Origin: Mobula hypostoma
Taxonomy: Eukaryota
Reading direction: 5' to 3'
Length of the DNA: 64,000 nucleotides
Assembly (NCBI RefSeq): GCF_963921235.1
Contig: NC_086097.1
Coordinates: 50,346,001-50,410,000 of the forward strand
This document shows positions 29,568 through 49,393 of this stretch, piece after piece. The first letter of the stretch is position 1. Each line of letters starts with the position of its first letter. The notes under the pieces were generated by a model. The model was not told where the DNA came from and did no database searches. It worked only from the letters and a program-made list of their open reading frames with translations. A program made the translations under genes and the position numbers.

Positions 29568-32500
29568 GCCCATAAGATACAGGAGCAGAATTAGGCCATT
29601 TGGCCCATCAAGTCTACCCCACCATTTCATCATGACTGATCCAATTTTCCTCTCAGCCCCAATCCCCTGTCTTTATCCCGTATCCCTTCATGCCCTGACC
29701 AATCAAGAATCTATCAACCTCTACCTTAAATGTACATAAAGACTAGGTCTACACAGCTGCCCATGGCAAAGAATTCCACCAATTCACCATCTGGCTAAAG
29801 AAATTCCTTCTCATCTCTGTTCTAAAAGGACGCCCCTCTATTCTGAGGCTGTGTCCTCTGGTCTAAGACTCTCCCACCATAGCAAACATCCTCTCCACAT
29901 CCACTCTATCAAGGCCTTTCAATATTTGATAGGTTTCAATTAGGTCACCCCTCATTCTTCTGAATTCCAGTGAATACAGACCCAGAGCCATCAAATGCTC
30001 TTCATATAACAAGCTATTCAATCCCAGAATCATTTTCTTGAATCTCCTTTGAACCCTCTCCAGTTCCAGCTCATCCTTTCCAAGATAAGGGGCCCAAAAC
30101 TGCTCACAGTACTCTAAGTGAGGCCTCACCAGTGCTTTATAAAGCCTCAACATTACATCTTTGCTTTTATACTCTATTCCTTTCAAAATGAATGCTAATA
30201 TCGCATTTGCCTTCCTCACCACAGACTCAACCTGCAAGTTAACCTTTAGGGAACCCTGCACATGTATTCCCAAGTCCCTTTGCACCTCAGTTATTTTTGT
30301 ATTTTCTCTCCATTTAGAAAATAGTCAACCCTTTCATTTCTTCTACCAAAGCACATGATCATACTCTTCCCGACACTATATTCCATCAACTATTTCTTTG
30401 CCCATTCTTCTAATCTAAGTCTTTCTGTCACCTCCCCACTTCCTCAAAACTACCAGCCCCTCCACTTATCTTCATATTGTCTGCAAACTTTGTAACAAAG
30501 CCATCAATTCCATCATCTAAATCACTGTCATAAAATGTAAAAAGAATCAGTCCCAACACAGAGCTCTGTGGAAAACCACTAGTCATCAGCAGCCAGTCAG
30601 AAAAGGCTCACTTTATTCCCACTCTTTGCCTCCTGCCAATCAGCCACTGCTTTATCCATGATAGGATCTTTCCTATACTGTAATACCAAGGGCTCATAGC
30701 TTGTTAAGCAGCTTCATGTATGGCACCTTGTCAAAGGCTTTCTGAAAATCCAAGTACACAACTTCAACTGATTCTCCTTTGTCTATTCTGCTTGATATTT
30801 TTTCAAAGGATTCCAACAGATTTGTCAGGCAAGACCTTCCTTTAAGGAAACCATACTGTCTACGGCCTAGCACTTGCCTCCAAGTACCAAGACTTTATCC
30901 TTAATAATTGTCTCCAACATCTTCCCACCTACTAAGGTCAGACTAACTGGCCTATAGTTTCCTTTCTTCTGCCTCTCCCCCTCCTTGAAGAGTGGAGTGA
31001 CGTTTGCAACTTTCCACTCTTCCAGAACCATTCCAGAATCCATTGATTCTTGCAAGATCATTACTAACGCCTCCATGATCTTTTCAGCTACATCTTTCAG
31101 AGGTGTACACCATCTGGTTCAGGTGACATCTACCTTCAGATCTTTCAGGTTCCCCAAGAACCTTCTCTCTAGTTATGGTAACTTCACACACTTCATGCCC
31201 CCCGACACCTGGAACTTCCACCATACTGCTCATGTCTTTCACAGCGAAGAATGATGCAAAGTAGTTATTCAGTTCAGTTCAGCTGCTATTTTGTTGTCCC
31301 CATTACTACCACTCCAGCATCATTTTCCAGCGGTCTGATATCCATTCTCACCTCTTTTACACTTTATGTATCTGAAGAAACGTTTGGTATCCTCTTTAAT
31401 ATTATTGGCTAGCTTACTTTTGTATTCTATCTTTACCTTCATAATGACTTTTTTTAGTTGCCTTCTGTTGGTTTTTAAAAGCTTCCCACTATTTGCTCTA
31501 TTATATACTCTCTCTTTGGCTTTTATGTTGGCTTTGACTTCGTTAGTCATGGTTGTGTCATCTTGCCTTTAGAATACTTCTTCCTCTTTGGGATGTATAT
31601 ATCCTGTGCATTCAAATTGCTTCCAGAAATTCCAGCCTTTGCTGCTCTGCTGCCATCCCTGCCAGTGTTCTTTTCCAATCAGTTCTGACCAACTTCTCTC
31701 TCATACCTCTGTCCTTCCCTTTAGTCCACTGTAATACTGATACATCTGACATTAGCTTCTCCTTCTCAAATTTCAGGGTGAATTTTATCATTTATGATCA
31801 CTTGCCCCCAAGGGTTCTTTGACCTGAAGTTCTCTCATCAATTCTGGTTCATTGCACAACACCCATTCCAGAATAGTGGATCCTCTAGTGGGCTCAACCA
31901 CTAGCGGCTCTAAAAAGCCATCTCATAGGCACTCTAGAAATTCCCCTTCCTGTAATCCAGCACCATCCTGATTTTCCCCAATCTACCTGCATACTGAAGT
32001 CCCCCGTAACTACTGTAACACTGTCCTTTTGGCATCCATTTTCTATCTCCCATTGTAATTTGGCCACATCCTTACTACTGTTTGGGGACCTGTATAAAAC
32101 TCCCATTAGGGTCTTTTTACCCTTGCATTTCCTTAGCTTTGTCCACAGTGATTCAACATCTTCTGACCCTGTGCCACCTCTAATGATTTTATTTCGTTTT
32201 TTAACCAACAGAGCAATGCCCCCCCCCCCGCTTTTCTGCCTATCCTTTCAATACAATGTGTATCCTTGGACATTAAGCTCCCAGATATTATCCTTCAGCC
32301 ATGATTCAGTGATGCCTATAACATCATACCTGCCAATATGCAACCGTGCTGCAAGTTCATCTACCTTATTCCGTACACAGTGCACATTCAGATTCAACAC
32401 CTTCAGTCCTGTATTCATCCTTTTCGATTTTGTCTGCGTTTTACGTTACAACTCATCCTGTTGGCTACAGTTTTGCCCTATCAACAGCCTCTCCTAACTA

Positions 32501-38073: not shown

Positions 38074-39275
38074 CAGAGCCTTGAAAAAAAAATACTCAGC
38101 CCCCACAACTATTTTAACATTTTACTCTCATTTTCTAAATTTAAAATATTGAAGTAGGATTTTTGAGCTAACCTACACTTTGTGCATCATGTCAAATCAA
38201 AAGAAAAATTCCAAAACCTGTCAACAATTTATTAAAAATTAAAAACCAAAATTGTGAGGCTAGAAAAAAGTATTCTTCCCCTCAGTAATTACTACATTAA
38301 TTTTATTCAGGTACAGTACTGTATATTACCTTACCAACTCACCCAAATTATTAGTGTAGAAAATTGGAAGATCACCTGTTTTCAATGAATTCATAAGAAT
38401 AAATACCCCCTCTCTGTAGGGTTCAACAGTATAGTAGATTTTCAACAGACCAAACTAAAATAAAGACAGAAGAGTGTTCAAGATAAGTCAGGGAAACAAT
38501 AATAGAGAAGCACAAATCTGGGGAAGGGCACAAGACCATCTCAAATGCACTGAGCATACCTCGAAGCACAATGTAGTCCGTTGTGAGTGGAAAAAACTTG
38601 AAACCACGGCCACACTGTCTAGGTTACACCACCCCTCTAAACTTAGTCACCAAAGAATAACACTTGTAAGAGAAGCCTCTTTGACACTGAGTGAGCAAAA
38701 GTCAGTGGCTACAACTGGAGACGAAGTTTATGGCTCTGCAATCTCCAAAGCCTTGCACAAAATGGGTATTTATGGAAGATTGGCAAGAAAGCCCTGGCTA
38801 AGAAAAAGCATATGCTTGCACATAAAGACTTTGCAAAGCTTCACTTAGAAGATACTATAAAGATGTGGAAGAAGGTCTTGCAGTCAGATGAGACTGAAGT
38901 GGAACTTTTTGGCCTCAACAGTAAGTAATGCATGTGGTGTAAATCTAATACTATGCATCAGTCAGGTAAAACCCTATCCCTACTGTAAAGTACAATGGAG
39001 GTAGCATCATGCTATGTGAATGCTTTTTCGCAGCGGGGATGGAAATCTGGTTAGGATTGATGGGAAGATGAATACTGTTAAATACAAAGATCCTGGATAT
39101 AAAACCTGCTAGCCTCTGCCAGAAAGCTTAAATTGGGAAGAAGTTTGTCTTTCAGCAGGACAACTACCCAAGACACACTGCCAGAGTGCAGAGTGCAGAG
39201 TGGCTTCTAATGAAGAAAACTGAAGTCTTTGAGTGGCCCAGTCAAAGTCCTGACCTTAACCTGATTGAACATCAG
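38074..39275 (+). mobile_element. Degenerate Tc1-family transposon, 3'-truncated
   Basis: TA|CAGAGCCTTGAAAA...ACTCAGCCCC left TIR. Transposase remnants GIYGRLARKP, WKKVL.SDET, GGSIML, FQQDN and [14 protein letters not shown]. Confidence 0.88.
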
Positions 39276-39369
39276 CTGGTTGAGCGGTGTTGCAAAAACA
39301 ATTTCACAGTGTCAGCAGAATCAAAGAATTTTTATGGGTTTCAGGAAGGCGGGGGGGGGGGGAAGAGTT

Positions 39370-39955
39370 GGGAGACCATGCACCAGTCATCATAGAGGGG
39401 TCAGCAGTGAAAACATGAGGCTCTTCAAGTCCCTGGGTGGCAACATCTCTGAGGATCTGTCCCCGTCCCAACGCATAGAGGCAATCACAAACAAGGCATG
39501 CCAGCTGCTCTACTTCATTAGGAGTCTGAGGAGGTCTGGTAAATTTCTACAAATGTACAGCGGAGAGCATTCTGATTGCTGCATCACACTCAGTATGGAG
39601 GCTCTGATGCTCAGACTCGGCACAGCCGGCTCCATCACCAAGGACATCATCCAGAGGTGGTGCCTCAAGAGGTCTGTGTCCAATAGTAAGGACCCTCAGC
39701 ATGCAGGACATTCCCTCCGATCACCACTATTAGGGAGGAGCTACGAGAACCTGAAGACCCACACTCAATCATTTAGAAGCAGCTTTTCCCCTCCATTGTC
39801 AGATTTATGAATGGTCCATGAACATTACCTCATTATTCTTTCTCTTTACATTATTTTGTAACTTACAATAATTTTGTCTTTACATTTTACTGCTTCTGCA
39901 AGACAAACTAATCTCATGTTATATAACATTGATAATAAACCCAATTCTAACCTTT
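39370..39955 (+). mobile_element. Rex1/Babar LINE 3' fragment
   Basis: FKSLGGNISEDLS...KACQLLYFIRSLRR...LLGRSY..LKTHT..FRSSF. Confidence 0.75.
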
Positions 39956-40409: not shown

Positions 40410-41193
40410 TTACTGAGAATATTTACAGAGATGTTACTAGGATTGCCAGGATTGAGATTAAGACTAGATCGGAAAGGCTGGAATTGTTTGCCCTGAAGTG
40501 AAGGACTCTGTGGAGTGCACTTCAGGAAGTTTATAAAATCATGAGGGGCATAAATAACATGGATGGTTGCACTCTTTTTCTTCCTCCAAAATAGGGAAAT
40601 CTAAAACTTGATAATTTTAGGGTGAGAGGAGTTAGATTTAAAGGGGAACCAAGGGGTAAACTTCTCCACATATAGCTTGGTGACAGTGGAACGAGCTGCC
40701 AGATAAACTGTCATTGTATTGGCTTTTCTACAAATGTTCAAAAGATATTTACAGGTCCACAGATGAGAAAGATTGAAGGATGTGAGTCAAATACAGACAA
40801 ATGGGATTAGTTTGGAAAGGCACTGTTGCATGGACAACTTGAGCCAAAGGAACTATTTTAGAGCCATAGAGCACTAGAGCACAGAAATAGGCCTGTTAGC
40901 CGATCTAGACCATGCTGAACTGTTACTCTGCCAAGTCATATCAACCCACACCTGGCCCACAGCCCTCCATACCCCTTCAGTCCATGTACCTATTCAAACT
41001 TCTCTTAAATGTTCCAATCAAACCTGCATTCACCACTTTTCTTGGCAGCTTGTTCCACACTTGCACTACTCTCTAAGTGAAGAAATTCCACCTCAGGTTT
41101 CCCTTAAATATTTCACCTTTCACCTGCAACCTATGACCTCTAGTTCTAGTCTCACCCAAACAGTGGAAAAATCCTACTAACACTTACCCTATC
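40410..41193. mobile_element. Two tail-to-tail CR1 3' fragments; the minus one is the LTR-element host and continues at 43259-43700
   Basis: CR1 3' UTR text on plus (~40410-40870) and minus (~40865-41193). Host text CACTTACCCTATC|TATGTCCC is split by the LTR element. Confidence 0.75.
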
Positions 41194-41384
41194 TGTTGTG
41201 TTCTTTAGACATACCGTGGGTTACTAAGAACAAACCATATTCTGGAAGGATTAAAACCAGAACTTTTATTTACAACAGCAAACAGCTACCATGTTTAACA
41301 TACAGCCATGCTTTCTAGATCATTCTGTCATTTCTGCGCATACTCCGAACTCTGTCCAATCACCTTTTTACACGTGACATCACA
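41194..41384 (-). repeat. 3' LTR
   Basis: Direct repeat of 43066-43258. Confidence 0.9.
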
Positions 41385-41442
41385 TCTTCCTTTCCTTAAA
41401 AAGAAAAACAATTAGCAACATTAACCAAAACAAATGCATAAT

Positions 41443-42284
41443 TTAACATGTCTCTATCAGTCTCTCTGGGGGCTGATATACATGAGTATATCTTCTAAGT
41501 GGTTCACACAGTTCTTGTGTTTCATTGTCATTTTCATGTGTTGTCTGGTCTGCATCAGTTAACTGACACTCTGAAGTTGGCTCTTTCTTGAGGTCTTTGA
41601 GAAGAAATTGCAATTCATTCATTAACTGTGTAATCCCTTTATTATGCTGAGACTTCATCATTTCAATAAAACTTCTCAATTCCTTCACTTGTTCTTTCAC
41701 TTCTTCAATTGGATCCTGATTCTTGTCACTCTTTGGCTTCAGATCCGTATTGTACTGTACCGGCAAGTTTGGTCTCTGTATGACTTCATACTCTTTCATC
41801 AAGTCACTGTATTCTGACTCTGTGTCACTGTCCAGGACTAAGAATCTTTTCACCAAATTCAGTCTCCCACAGGCAGATAAACCCAATATTGACTGTACAT
41901 ATTTTGGCACTACCACAAATGAAAGTATATGCTCAATATTTTTGTGTGATACTTTTGCCACACATGTTCCTTTAACTGGAAGGTCTGCACCTGAATACCC
42001 AGTCACTTTTATATTTGTCTGATGTAACTTTGGTCTTGGCTTTAATGCATTAAGCTCAGATTCTGCAAGAACATTTACCTGTGCTCCAGAATATTGTTTT
42101 GGTTCACTTGCAATGGAATAGTCCAGTCATCCTTACTTTGTTTGTTTTCACAAAGCACATGTATATAAAACTCCTCACATTCATTTTCAAGCACTGCATT
42201 TACATGTTTTATTTCCTTTCTACTTCTGCAACAGCGTAAAAAATGATTACTCTTACCACAGTTTTTGCACATTTTCTGATACAC
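41443..42284 (-). pseudogene. Gag zinc knuckle, aspartic protease remnant, foreign coiled-coil segment and pol C-terminal tail
   Basis: CKNCGKSNHFLRCC knuckle; GAQVNVL and ILGLSACGRLNL protease remnants; LRRYT...PPERL tail; RT, RNase H and integrase core missing. Confidence 0.8.
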
Positions 42285-42321
42285 TGGACACTTTTTATGT
42301 TGGTGCTCCCGCCCACAGAGA

Positions 42322-42972
42322 TCACAAAGTTTTTTTTCCTGCAGATAACGTCTTGTTCTCTGTCAGTTTCGTTGCCGTTTTATTACTTTTTCTAATATGT
42401 TCACGCACAGCGTGTACGTTGCAGTTCTCAATAGAAAGCTCTTTAGCCTGTGACGTCACGGTCTCAGAAGCTTTGCAGAGTGCAACAGCTTTTTCCAAAT
42501 TCAAATCTTGTTCTACCAGTCTTTCTCTCAGACCATTATCCAGAATGCTGCAATTAATTCTGTCTTTAATGAAAGAGTCTGTAAACTCGCATCTTTTACT
42601 GTGGTTTCTCGACTCCGTAATAAATTGATCAATCATTTGACCAGGTCTCTGCCGACATTTGAAAAAAATGTACCGTTCATATGTCACATTGCACTTCTGT
42701 ATACAAAATGCTTCAAATTTGTCGATTATCTCTGTTAGATTCAAATTATCTCCATTTTCAAAAGTAAAATGGTTATATACCCCAACTGCGTCATCCCCTA
42801 TTATGTGGAGTAGGATCGCTGCTTTCGTCTTTTCCATTTTATTTTCTGCTCCTATCGTCGATACATAAATTTCAAAACGCTGCTTAAATCTTTTCCAGTT
42901 TTCAGCTACGTTTCCAGTCAGCTGAAGCATTGATGGGGGTTGCAAAACTTCCATTTTTAAAGTTGTTAGCAA
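42322..42972 (-). CDS. Gypsy gag (capsid) ORF, 216 aa
   Basis: GNVAENWKRFKQRFEIY...LLHIIG...NVTYERYIFFKCRQRPGQ.IDQF...IKDRI...L.LEKA. Confidence 0.85.
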   Translation of the reverse strand: MLTTLKMEVLQPPSMLQLTGNVAENWKRFKQRFEIYVSTIGAENKMEKTKAAILLHIIGDDAVGVYNHFTFENGDNLNLTEIIDKFEAFCIQKCNVTYERYIFFKCRQRPGQMIDQFITESRNHSKRCEFTDSFIKDRINCSILDNGLRERLVEQDLNLEKAVALCKASETVTSQAKELSIENCNVHAVREHIRKSNKTATKLTENKTLSAGKKTL

Positions 42973-43065
42973 ACAACGAAAAAGTTTGTGCTTATTTTCT
43001 CTATTGTCTTCGCTTCTCCCGTGTTAGCGAGACAAATTATTCTTCCAGATCGACTTCTGACACCA

Positions 43066-43258
43066 TGTTGTGTCCTTTCGTGGGTTACCAAGAACAAACC
43101 ATATTCTGGAAGAATTAAAACTAGAACTTTTACTTACAACATCAAACAGCAACCACATTTAACATACAGCCATGCTTTCTAAATCATTCTGTCATTTCTG
43201 CGCATGCTCCGAACTCTGTCCAATCATGTTCTCACACGTGACACGTGATATCAGCACA
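43066..43258 (-). repeat. 5' LTR
   Basis: Direct repeat of 41194-41384, abutting the PBS. Confidence 0.9.
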
Positions 43259-43734
43259 CTATCTATGTCCCTTAATTTTTTTAAATACCCCCATCAAAAC
43301 TGCCCTCATTCTCCTACACACCAGGGAACAACATTCTAGCTTGTTCAACATTTCTCTGTAACACCAACCTTGTAAATTTTCTCTGTACTCTTTCAATCTT
43401 ATTAATGCCTTTCCTGTACGTAGGTGACCAGAACTGCACACAGTTTTGGTCTCAGTCTTATACCATTTCATCAAAACTTTTGTCTTCATAAATCAGAGTA
43501 TTAAGGACTCACTGCTTTGATTTTTGAAAGTTAATGTGCCAAAAACTCTTTCAATGAGCCTATCTATATGTGATGCCACTTTTAATGAATTATGGATCTG
43601 TATTCCCAATCCCTCTGTTCTACCCCACTTCTCAGTGCATTACTGTTCTCTGCACAAGTCCTACCCTGGTTTGTCCTTGCAAAGTGCAACAGCTCACACT
43701 TTCTTGGTCACCTCCTCAGAAAGCTATAATATTA

Positions 43735-46861: not shown

Positions 46862-49039
46862 TACATATATATCTTGTCCCTTAGAATACCTTCAAATAAT
46901 TTACCCACTACTGATGTCAGGCTAAGGGTGTTTTAAATACGTCTGTCAGGGCACTTCAATTTCTACGCTAGCCTCCCACGAGGTCTGAGGGGACACGTTG
47001 CCATGCCCTGGAAACCAATCCACACTAATTATCCTCAAGACAGCAAGAATTTCCTCTTCTGCAATCCAGATATGATTCATGACCTCACTACTGTTTTACC
47101 CTAGTTTCATAGTCCCTGCATCTATCTCCTGAGTTAATACAGATGCAAAGAATCCATTTAAGGTCGCCCCCATCTCTTTTAGCTCCATGTATTGATGACT
47201 GCGCTGAACGTCAAGTAGACTAATTTTGTCTCTTGCTATCCTTAATATATCTGTAGAAGTCCTTAAGATTCTCCTTCATCTTTTCTGCCAGAACAACCTC
47301 AAGCTTTCTTTTAGCCTTCTTGATTTCCATCTCAAGTGTTCTCTTGCATTACTTAAACTCAAGTGCCTCATTTGTTCCTTACAGTTTACATCTGCCATGC
47401 ACCTCCTCCTTCTTAAACAGGGCCTCAATATCCTTGGGAACCAAGGTTCCCCAAGCCTGCTAGCATTGCCTTTTATTCTAAAAGGAATATAAGAAGTCTG
47501 TTCACTCAATATTCCACTTTTGAGGGCCTCCCATTTACCAAGCATCCTTTTGCTGGAAAACAACCCATCCCACAAGACATAGGAGCAGAATTAGGCCACG
47601 AGGCCCATAGAATCTGCTCCGCCATTCAATCATTGCCTATTTATTAACCCTCTCAACCTCATTTTCCTGCCTTTCCTGGTAACCTTTGACTCCCTGACTA
47701 ACCAAGAACCTATCAGCAACAGAATCAGAATCAAGTTTAGCATCACCGGCATATGTCATGAAATTTGTTAACTTTACAGCAGCAGTACAATGATAAATAA
47801 ATATAGAGAAAAAAATTTGGAGTTACATTATACAAGCGCAGTTTGACTAATACTTTGTAAAGCCTCCACATTATATCCTTGCTGTTATATTCTAGTCCTC
47901 TCAAAATAAATGCTAACATTGCAGTTGCTTTCCTTACTCCAAATCAAGTTAACCTTTACAGAATCTTGCACAAGGACTCCCAAGTCCCTTTACAACTCTG
48001 ATTTTTGAATTTTCTCCTTGTTTAGAAAATAGCCCATGACTTGGTTTCTTCTACCAAAGTGCAAGACTACATAATTCCCTATACTACATTCTATCTGCCC
48101 ATTCTACCAAATTGTCTAGGTCCTTCTGCAGACTCCCTGCTTCCTCAACATTATCTGGAACTCTACCGATCTTCATATCATCTGCAAACTTAGCCACAAG
48201 CCATCAATTCCATCATCTAAATCACTGACATGTAACGTGGGGGGAAAAAAAGCAGTCCCAATACCCACCCCTGCAGAACACCACTTGTCACCAGCAGCCA
48301 ACCAGAAAAGGCCCCCTTTATTCCCAATCTCTAAGCAGCCCCACGTGCGGCACCTTGTCTAAGACCTTTTGTAGATCCAAGTAAATAACATCCACTGACT
48401 CTCCTTTGTCTATTCTACCTGTTATTTCCTCGAAGAATTCCAACAGATTTGTCAGGCAAGGTTTTCCCTTCAGGAAACCATGCTGACTTTAGCATAACTT
48501 ATCATGCACCTCCACATACCTTGAAATCTCATCCTTCATAATGGATTCCAATATCTTCCAAACCATTGAAGACAGGCTAACTGGACTAAAATTTCCTTTC
48601 TTTTGTTTCCTTCCCTTCATATTTCATCTTCTCTCTCCTTACGGTTTTAGTTCTCCTGCTAGTTTTTAAAAAAGGTTTCACAATCTTCTAAATTCCCACT
48701 AATTTTTGCTAAAATAAATGCCCCCTCTTTTGCTTTTATGCTGTCTTTGACTTCCCTCGTCAATCACAGTTGCCTCATCCTATCTTTAGAATACTACTTC
48801 ATCTTTGGGATGTATCTATCCTGTGCCTTCTGAACTGCCCCCAGGAACTCCAGCCAGTGCTGTTCCATCATTAACCCTGCTAGTGTCACCTTCTACCTTC
48901 CACTGTGTATGGAAGGAAAGGTACCATTAAGCCAACCTCAGCGCATCAGCTCGGTTTAGGAAACATTATGAGAATATACAGGGAAGACACTGAAATGTGT
49001 GCTCTCAGCACAATGACACCAAAACGACAAGGCAACGTT

Positions 49040-49044
49040 CGCGC

Positions 49045-49090
<46 letters not shown>

Positions 49091-49106
49091 ATGCGCACAC
49101 ATGTGC
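49040..49106. repeat. (GT)n microsatellite within an alternating purine-pyrimidine tract
   Basis: CGCGCGC(GT)~20GCGCATGCGCACACATGTGC. Confidence 0.95.
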
Positions 49107-49393
49107 CAGGAGTGCATATACCAAGTGCTCTCTGTCATACCTCTCTTTTACACTTCATATATCTGAAGAACCCTTTGGTATTCTCTTCATTATTATTGGC
49201 TAGCTTACATTCGTATTTCAGCCTTTCCTTCTTTATGACTTTTTTTAGTTACCTTCTGTTGGTTTTTAAAAGTTTCCCAATCCTCAAACTTCCCACTAAC
49301 TTCTGCTCTATAATATGCTCTTTTTGAGTTTTATAATGGCTTTGACTTCTCTTGTCGACCACGGTTGTGTCATCTTGCCTTTAGAATACTTCA

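Follow-up and report, generated by a model that had tools for sequence, protein, structure and literature searches.

How a piece of a host endocytic adaptor came to lie inside a transposable element, and why it stayed in frame there, is the question raised by the minus strand of this 64,000-nucleotide stretch of the Mobula hypostoma genome (hereafter the window). An SH3KBP1 (CIN85)-like peptide had been read at positions 41611-41784 from the letters alone, and it is present as quoted; the host segment is indeed there, with its true extent being 41612-41779. The enclosing ORF, given as 41443-42006, is the GTG-started portion of a stop-to-stop frame at 41443-42126 (minus strand), and the gag-pro frame upstream of it is broken twice.

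The segment belongs to a 2065-bp Gypsy element (41194-43258, minus strand throughout), in which two LTRs, a primer site, a polypurine tract (PPT) and a 5-bp target-site duplication (TSD) were all found. The upstream copy of the TSD, GATAG (43259-43263), is followed by a 193-bp 5' LTR bounded by TG...CA (43066-43258), which differs from the 3' LTR by a K2P distance of 0.095 over 183 sites. Over 13 nt, the adjacent primer-binding site (43053-43065) pairs with CCA and the 3' terminus of a host tRNA that contains an intron. This tRNA matches at three genomic places and was found by ARAGORN with intron search, having been missed without it; ARAGORN labels it Thr(cgt), and we read it as Leu-CAA from the anticodon position and the long variable arm. 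The gag region with its zinc knuckle (42090-42954), matching the full-length, single-ORF Gypsy polyprotein P0019 at 55% and 51%, has its frame broken near 42333, and the aspartic protease remnant (41788-42090), 61% identical to P0019, has lost its start through a private 16-nt deletion near 42090 that breaks the frame a second time. Next come an 8-nt remnant of the region of the RT N-terminus (41780-41787) and the captured spliced SH3KBP1 cDNA (41612-41779), which meet at the microhomology ACAGA (41779-41775). At the 3' junction, 12 nt from the integrase tail of the element stand in inverted orientation (41600-41611), a mark common to the window-type subfamily; they lead into the integrase C-terminal tail with the natural pol stop (41443-41599), 59 nt before the 3' LTR. 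The polypurine tract (41385-41397), the 191-bp 3' LTR (41194-41384) and the downstream GATAG (41189-41193) complete the element.

The element lacks RT, RNase H and the core of the integrase and retains the integrase tail, in agreement with the original prediction of a non-autonomous element with intact ends in which these enzymes had been replaced. We take the element to be of the single-ORF, "K02A2.6-like" Gypsy type in the Mag clade, an assumed label that rests on similarity rather than on a tree; it shares the gag, the protease and the same C-terminal tail with that type and differs from it in lacking the RT, RNase H and integrase core. The window copy itself is a dead, broken and shortened derivative of the longer-cargo forms described below. 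At this locus, the only one assessed for domestication (a fixed locus, an intact frame and purifying selection), the copy is frameshifted and does not qualify as a functional retrogene.

Comparison of 41612-41779 with spliced host SH3KBP1 revealed a gap-free alignment with 163 of 168 nt identical, and this alignment runs over the exon B/C boundary (41642|41641) with the intron gone, just as a host match over an exon-exon junction had been foreseen. The cargo encodes residues 592-647 of the 671-residue ray protein and is devoid of the last 24 residues of CIN85. The host gene lies at G000:C18:80649802-80909871; its last four exons are bounded by AG/GT, and the exon translation is that of Mobula SH3KBP1, identical over residues 554-637. 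Five differences separate the cargo from the host, two of them synonymous and subfamily-wide and three of them private amino-acid changes. A large protein search matched 16 of 23 candidates, with ray SH3KBP1 proteins at the top (95% over 56 residues), and the two best-scoring PDB entries, 5abs and 2n64 (E about 1e-5), are structures of the coiled coil of human CIN85; a Pfam search with the insert by itself gave nothing above the cut-off. A generic coiled-coil resemblance is ruled out by the 97% DNA match over the splice junction. Moreover, the segment is missing in the two pol-bearing relatives fetched from the ray genome, and likewise in two Gypsy polyproteins of full length that come from other species.

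Multiple LTR-flanked copies with the same insert, also anticipated, were found across the genome. A 31-nt pattern over the spliced SH3KBP1 junction gave 321 genomic matches with at most three mismatches against none for the reversed control, and a DNA search with the insert returned 426 candidates, 40 of which were scored, all at 94% or more; these copy counts, like those of the subfamilies, are sample-based lower bounds. The B/C junction is crossed by 30 of the 30 loci fetched from the DNA search, and all three junctions appear in one alignment in 12 of them. Two longer forms of the cargo were recognized, type I with host residues of about 540-667 and type II with 524-667 (430 nt, three introns removed); both have an identical 3' end, four codons ahead of the host stop. 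The window type combines a shorter cargo, the ACAGA join and the 12-nt tail inversion at the 3' join, in 12 of the 13 loci examined. The notion that the element spreads an oligomerisation domain stands for DNA copies only, the domain being known here from DNA rather than from protein or function.

The LTR pairs of the family, measurable in 21 of 52 loci, have K2P distances of 0.045-0.164 with a median of 0.088, in a set with roughly aligned ends that includes one helper and a near-identical triplet. A permissive search found a perfect 5-bp TSD in 10 of 21 loci, each locus with a different one. The median cargo-to-host distance is 0.03-0.06 depending on the subfamily, biased low where sets were chosen by similarity. 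A protease tree of 52 rows (six loci without a match and two short ones excluded) is star-like, with strong support only for the mosaic subfamily, and the order of captures is not resolvable from it. Three near-identical copies within 150 kb (L012-L014, G000:C18:182.54-182.69 Mb) are probably a segmental duplication rather than separate insertions.

The RefSeq proteins of Hemitrygon akajei and Hypanus sabinus carry the same joins; therefore, barring transfer, the captures predate the split of these species from the Mobula lineage. Three RefSeq stingray protein models (P0005, P0018 and P0099) copy chimeric elements, one under the label "rab GTPase-binding effector protein 1-like", which is a warning for annotation, as chimeric copies already bear the names of host genes in stingray proteomes. 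Among contigs from four sequencing runs, of a type guessed as RNA, that were compared with the copy L007, some span the join of cargo and tail, and two runs contain the 3' join of the window type; they indicate presence in related organisms, not transcription. A literature search that covered few subscription papers and no supplements found no published account of SH3KBP1 or RABEP1 capture in rays, nor of this family.

The two pol-bearing relatives in the same genome (L059 and L060), both decayed, are 82-97% identical across the shared parts. L059 has LTRs 84-86% like those of the window element together with remnants of RT, RNase H and integrase, and thus represents the matching helper type. 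In L059 (1254-4361), gag has been deleted right after the 5' LTR, a mirror image of the cargo elements. The cargo takes the place of a pol segment rather than interrupting pol, and the LTR-element sequence is discontinuous on both of its flanks. The 3' switch point falls on the microhomology AGAAAGC, the 5' switch point on AAGAG in type II and on GTCATA(C/A)AGAAA in type I, and a join from RABEP1, a second cargo, to pol on AGAGCT; against the two pol-bearing relatives these microhomologies are exact over 5-7 nt or agree at 11 of 12 nt. The proposed template switching onto a host mRNA is supported by the spliced cargo and these microhomologies, from which we infer the switch itself. The junctions of the window copy are secondary, a longer capture having been trimmed later.

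CIN85 is not the only cargo of this backbone. A search with a Rabaptin segment (PF03528) gave 150 scored matches among 260 candidates. The 20 RABEP1 loci fetched (L039-L058; e.g. L039 and L047:1497-1835) carry the spliced N-terminal coiled coil of RABEP1 (Rabaptin-5), alone in two loci, with the CIN85 coil nested within it in 17, and through a different RABEP1-CIN85 join in one. Comparison with the host was made on one exon (C71:53174545-53174343), the adjacent host exon having not been located; it is 95-97% identical to three copies and ends in GT where the copies continue. A protease-less subfamily has the order gag, RABEP1, CIN85, a lysine-rich third insert and tail. This third insert, of about 180 nt, gave 94 matches among 116 candidates (L068-L071 and L073-L092; e.g. 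L070:1331-1510). Searches for its source yielded no Pfam family, no representative protein with an E of 0.001 or less, atlas matches all under 0.8 (NKAPD1-like and KRCC1-like) and no cargo-free host locus among the 20 fetched, the anchor search having missed one. In L084, the third insert directly follows the 5' leader, with gag and the other cargos deleted. The locus L072 (G000:C1:5233500-5237300) has a separate Gypsy backbone: it does not match the window element at the DNA level, and its amino-acid identity to P0019 is 26%. The cargos are purine-rich like the element, with an A content of 0.33-0.44 versus 0.34.

Measurement of the joins revealed a frame rule. The modal distance between codon-phased anchors is a multiple of 3 in 13 of 13 junction-containing intervals common to at least two copies. 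When pol is compared with the cargos, or either of them with itself, exact 3-8 nt matches fall in frame at a rate of 0.33-0.53, which puts the probability of 13 of 13 between 3e-5 (at 0.45) and 1e-4 (0.5^13). The loci were chosen by cargo sequence and not by frame over the joins; the junction classes were set after looking, on 77 cargo-bearing loci from several hundred. The RABEP1-only 3' join, of 201 and 218 nt in its two copies, was left out of the 13, and some out-of-frame distances recur, in two copies. Frameshifts within the cargo are nearly all private, except for a 1-nt deletion in three copies and two deletions common to one pair. Of the 20 copies of the three-cargo subfamily, only 7 keep the frame within RABEP1; as the indels are scattered and, with the exception of one pair, private, we attribute them to decay after insertion. 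In addition, a 10-nt microhomology beside the type II 5' junction would yield an out-of-frame product and a stop, and the amplified form uses the in-frame 5-nt join. Since all 13 junction types keep the gag-to-tail frame, there was probably selection for translation across the cargo during the active period of the family.

The variants within the cargo speak to the protein itself. Singletons decay neutrally, with 97 nonsynonymous (N) to 25 synonymous (S) changes against an expected 2.81 in 28 DNA-picked copies. In a first test on 50 copies the shared variants numbered 9 N:4 S (p = 0.39), and after removal of two suspect synonymous changes the comparison stood at 5:5 (p = 0.08). A pooled test on 75 copies and both cargos, with CpG sites removed, a threshold picked after earlier looks, one site counted twice and one subfamily-wide amino-acid change lost by trimming at the alignment end, gave 12 N:11 S for variants in at least four copies versus 207:55 for singletons (one-sided Fisher p = 0.006; transitions alone p = 0.08, transversions alone p = 0.04). 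Stops are found in none of the 23 variants in at least four copies and in 16 of the 278 singletons. The shared variants are richer in synonymous changes than the singletons, which weakens the view of the cargo as pure filler, and a mild protein constraint is possible. This lean could also stem from host alleles imported through recombination with host mRNA. The shared protease variants (31 N:31 S) carry a purifying signal that was set aside because it may predate the capture.

Altogether, the account that we consider somewhat probable is that of a gag-pro Gypsy element with a captured CIN85 cDNA, copied in trans, trimmed and mixed, in which the frame was kept for an RNA-level reason and the cargo is mostly filler. 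We propose that a single-ORF ray Gypsy element co-packaged SH3KBP1 mRNA, and that reverse transcriptase would have switched template twice at the short microhomologies now seen at the joins, with the spliced host cDNA replacing RT, RNase H and most of the integrase. The chimera, endowed with LTRs, primer site, PPT and gag-pro, would then have been mobilised in trans by pol-bearing relatives to give the copies observed. In its simplest form, the history may comprise a single capture (type II) and, after it, deletions and template switches to helper RNA packaged alongside; later switches between co-packaged RNAs would have trimmed the cargo to the window type and mixed in an independently captured RABEP1 piece and the third insert. 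The statistics of the joins indicate that subfamilies arose only from products with one frame from gag to the natural stop beside the 3' LTR. This frame would be kept mainly at the RNA level, where an early stop might create a long 3' UTR and lead to nonsense-mediated decay, or might uncouple the RNA from Gag translation; premature stops and long 3' UTRs are described as a decay signal for retroviral RNA in the accessible text of PMC2925335. The CIN85 piece would for the most part fill the frame, with a constraint on the protein that is mild at most, and we favour this RNA-level reason over a role of the coiled coil.

A protein role of the coiled coils is a tentative alternative, possible though not likely, in which a Gag-(protease)-coiled-coil fusion would aid the entry of element RNA into helper particles, either by oligomerising or by docking on endosomal membranes. 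It would account for the in-frame junctions and for the synonymous lean of the shared variants, the latter countered by the first test on 50 copies and by the possible import of host alleles. It is also attractive in that the two cargos identified come from the coiled coils of adaptors that work in endocytosis or on endosomes (CIN85 and Rabaptin-5), and the C-terminal coiled coil of CIN85 trimerises, as far as stated in the accessible part of PMC10786037; however, the purine-rich composition of the cargos alone favours capture. The CIN85 coil has undergone radical changes at the subfamily level, including F>C, F>I, K>T and I>T, the window-type subfamily has lost its last 24 residues, and one subfamily has lost the protease, all of which argue against such a role. 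A broader picture, in which a vertebrate Gypsy lineage acted as an in-frame domain shuffler that repeatedly captured endocytic-adaptor coiled coils (CIN85, Rabaptin-5), fused them behind Gag and built two- and three-gene mosaics selected for element propagation, seems to us unlikely.

Selection for the frame could be dispensed with altogether if a codon-phase bias of the microhomologies and a lucky few founder copies produced the rule, with the cargo being inert DNA. Microhomology matches do fall in frame above one time in three (up to 0.53), the subfamilies are nested and the classes were set after looking; nevertheless, 13 of 13 intervals are in frame at the probabilities given above under that very bias, in loci not chosen on frame, and type II bypasses the adjacent out-of-frame 10-nt microhomology, making this explanation quite improbable. 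An origin of the insert from a LINE-made processed pseudogene or DNA-level capture, rather than from template switching in a Gypsy particle, is largely refuted and very improbable, for although intron loss by itself names no enzyme and LINE remnants are frequent in the window, the cargo has no poly(A), L1 hallmarks, host stop codon, host 3' UTR or inner TSD, and it replaces pol with both ends on pol microhomologies, the signature in the accessible text of Tan et al. 2016 (PMC5131818).

Preferred here, template switching followed by mobilisation in trans would be a variant of a known process. According to the accessible text of Tan et al. 2016 (PMC5131818), LTR-mediated retroposition had already been described, including secondary retroposition and multi-gene chimeras; their retrocopies likewise have partial spliced mRNA in place of part of an internal ORF, microsimilarity at the switch points and both LTRs retained. 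The scale reported in that text is 18 insertion sites for nine fly retrocopies, and five of seven zebrafish and four of ten chicken retrocopies. Compared to these few loci, one cargo here has at least 321 copies, and cargos were shuffled between subfamilies. The 14 of 17 in-frame cases given there refer to the frame of the parental gene in young copies, whereas here it is the frame of the element itself, from gag to tail, that is kept at every shared junction. Maize Bs1, in the account of the same text, is also an LTR element with exonic pieces from three host genes, re-transposed with fixed switch points; its copy number is 1-5, and one of the three pieces does not keep the frame. By contrast, the ray family numbers hundreds of copies in a vertebrate genome; the two cargos identified lie in frame, and the third insert leaves the frame unbroken. 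Plant TR-GAG elements, as presented in the accessible text of PMC8704663, similarly have two LTRs and a single Gag-encoding ORF and are mobilised without their own RT or integrase; that part of the text does not mention host cargo, whereas in the ray family gag(-pro) continues into host coiled coils and an integrase tail.

The mechanism is thus known, and what is new is the scale, the serial in-frame mosaics and the frame rule. Gene capture by LTR elements is known mainly as low-copy cases, and the ray family amounts to a natural experiment on a large scale, in a vertebrate genome that evolves slowly. Its copies number in the hundreds and can be dated, captures occurred independently several times and were followed by recombination, and the host genes and helper elements are still there to compare. 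It makes testable what decides which captured chimeras amplify, be it an open frame, RNA composition or protein function.

Elsewhere in the window, positions 38459-39395 (plus strand) hold a putative decayed transposase remnant, which we presume from its motifs to be Tc1/mariner-like. Two further regions, 30235-31613 and 47945-49390, about 17.7 kb apart, are diverged copies (73-90%) of one repeat and are probably LINE remnants.
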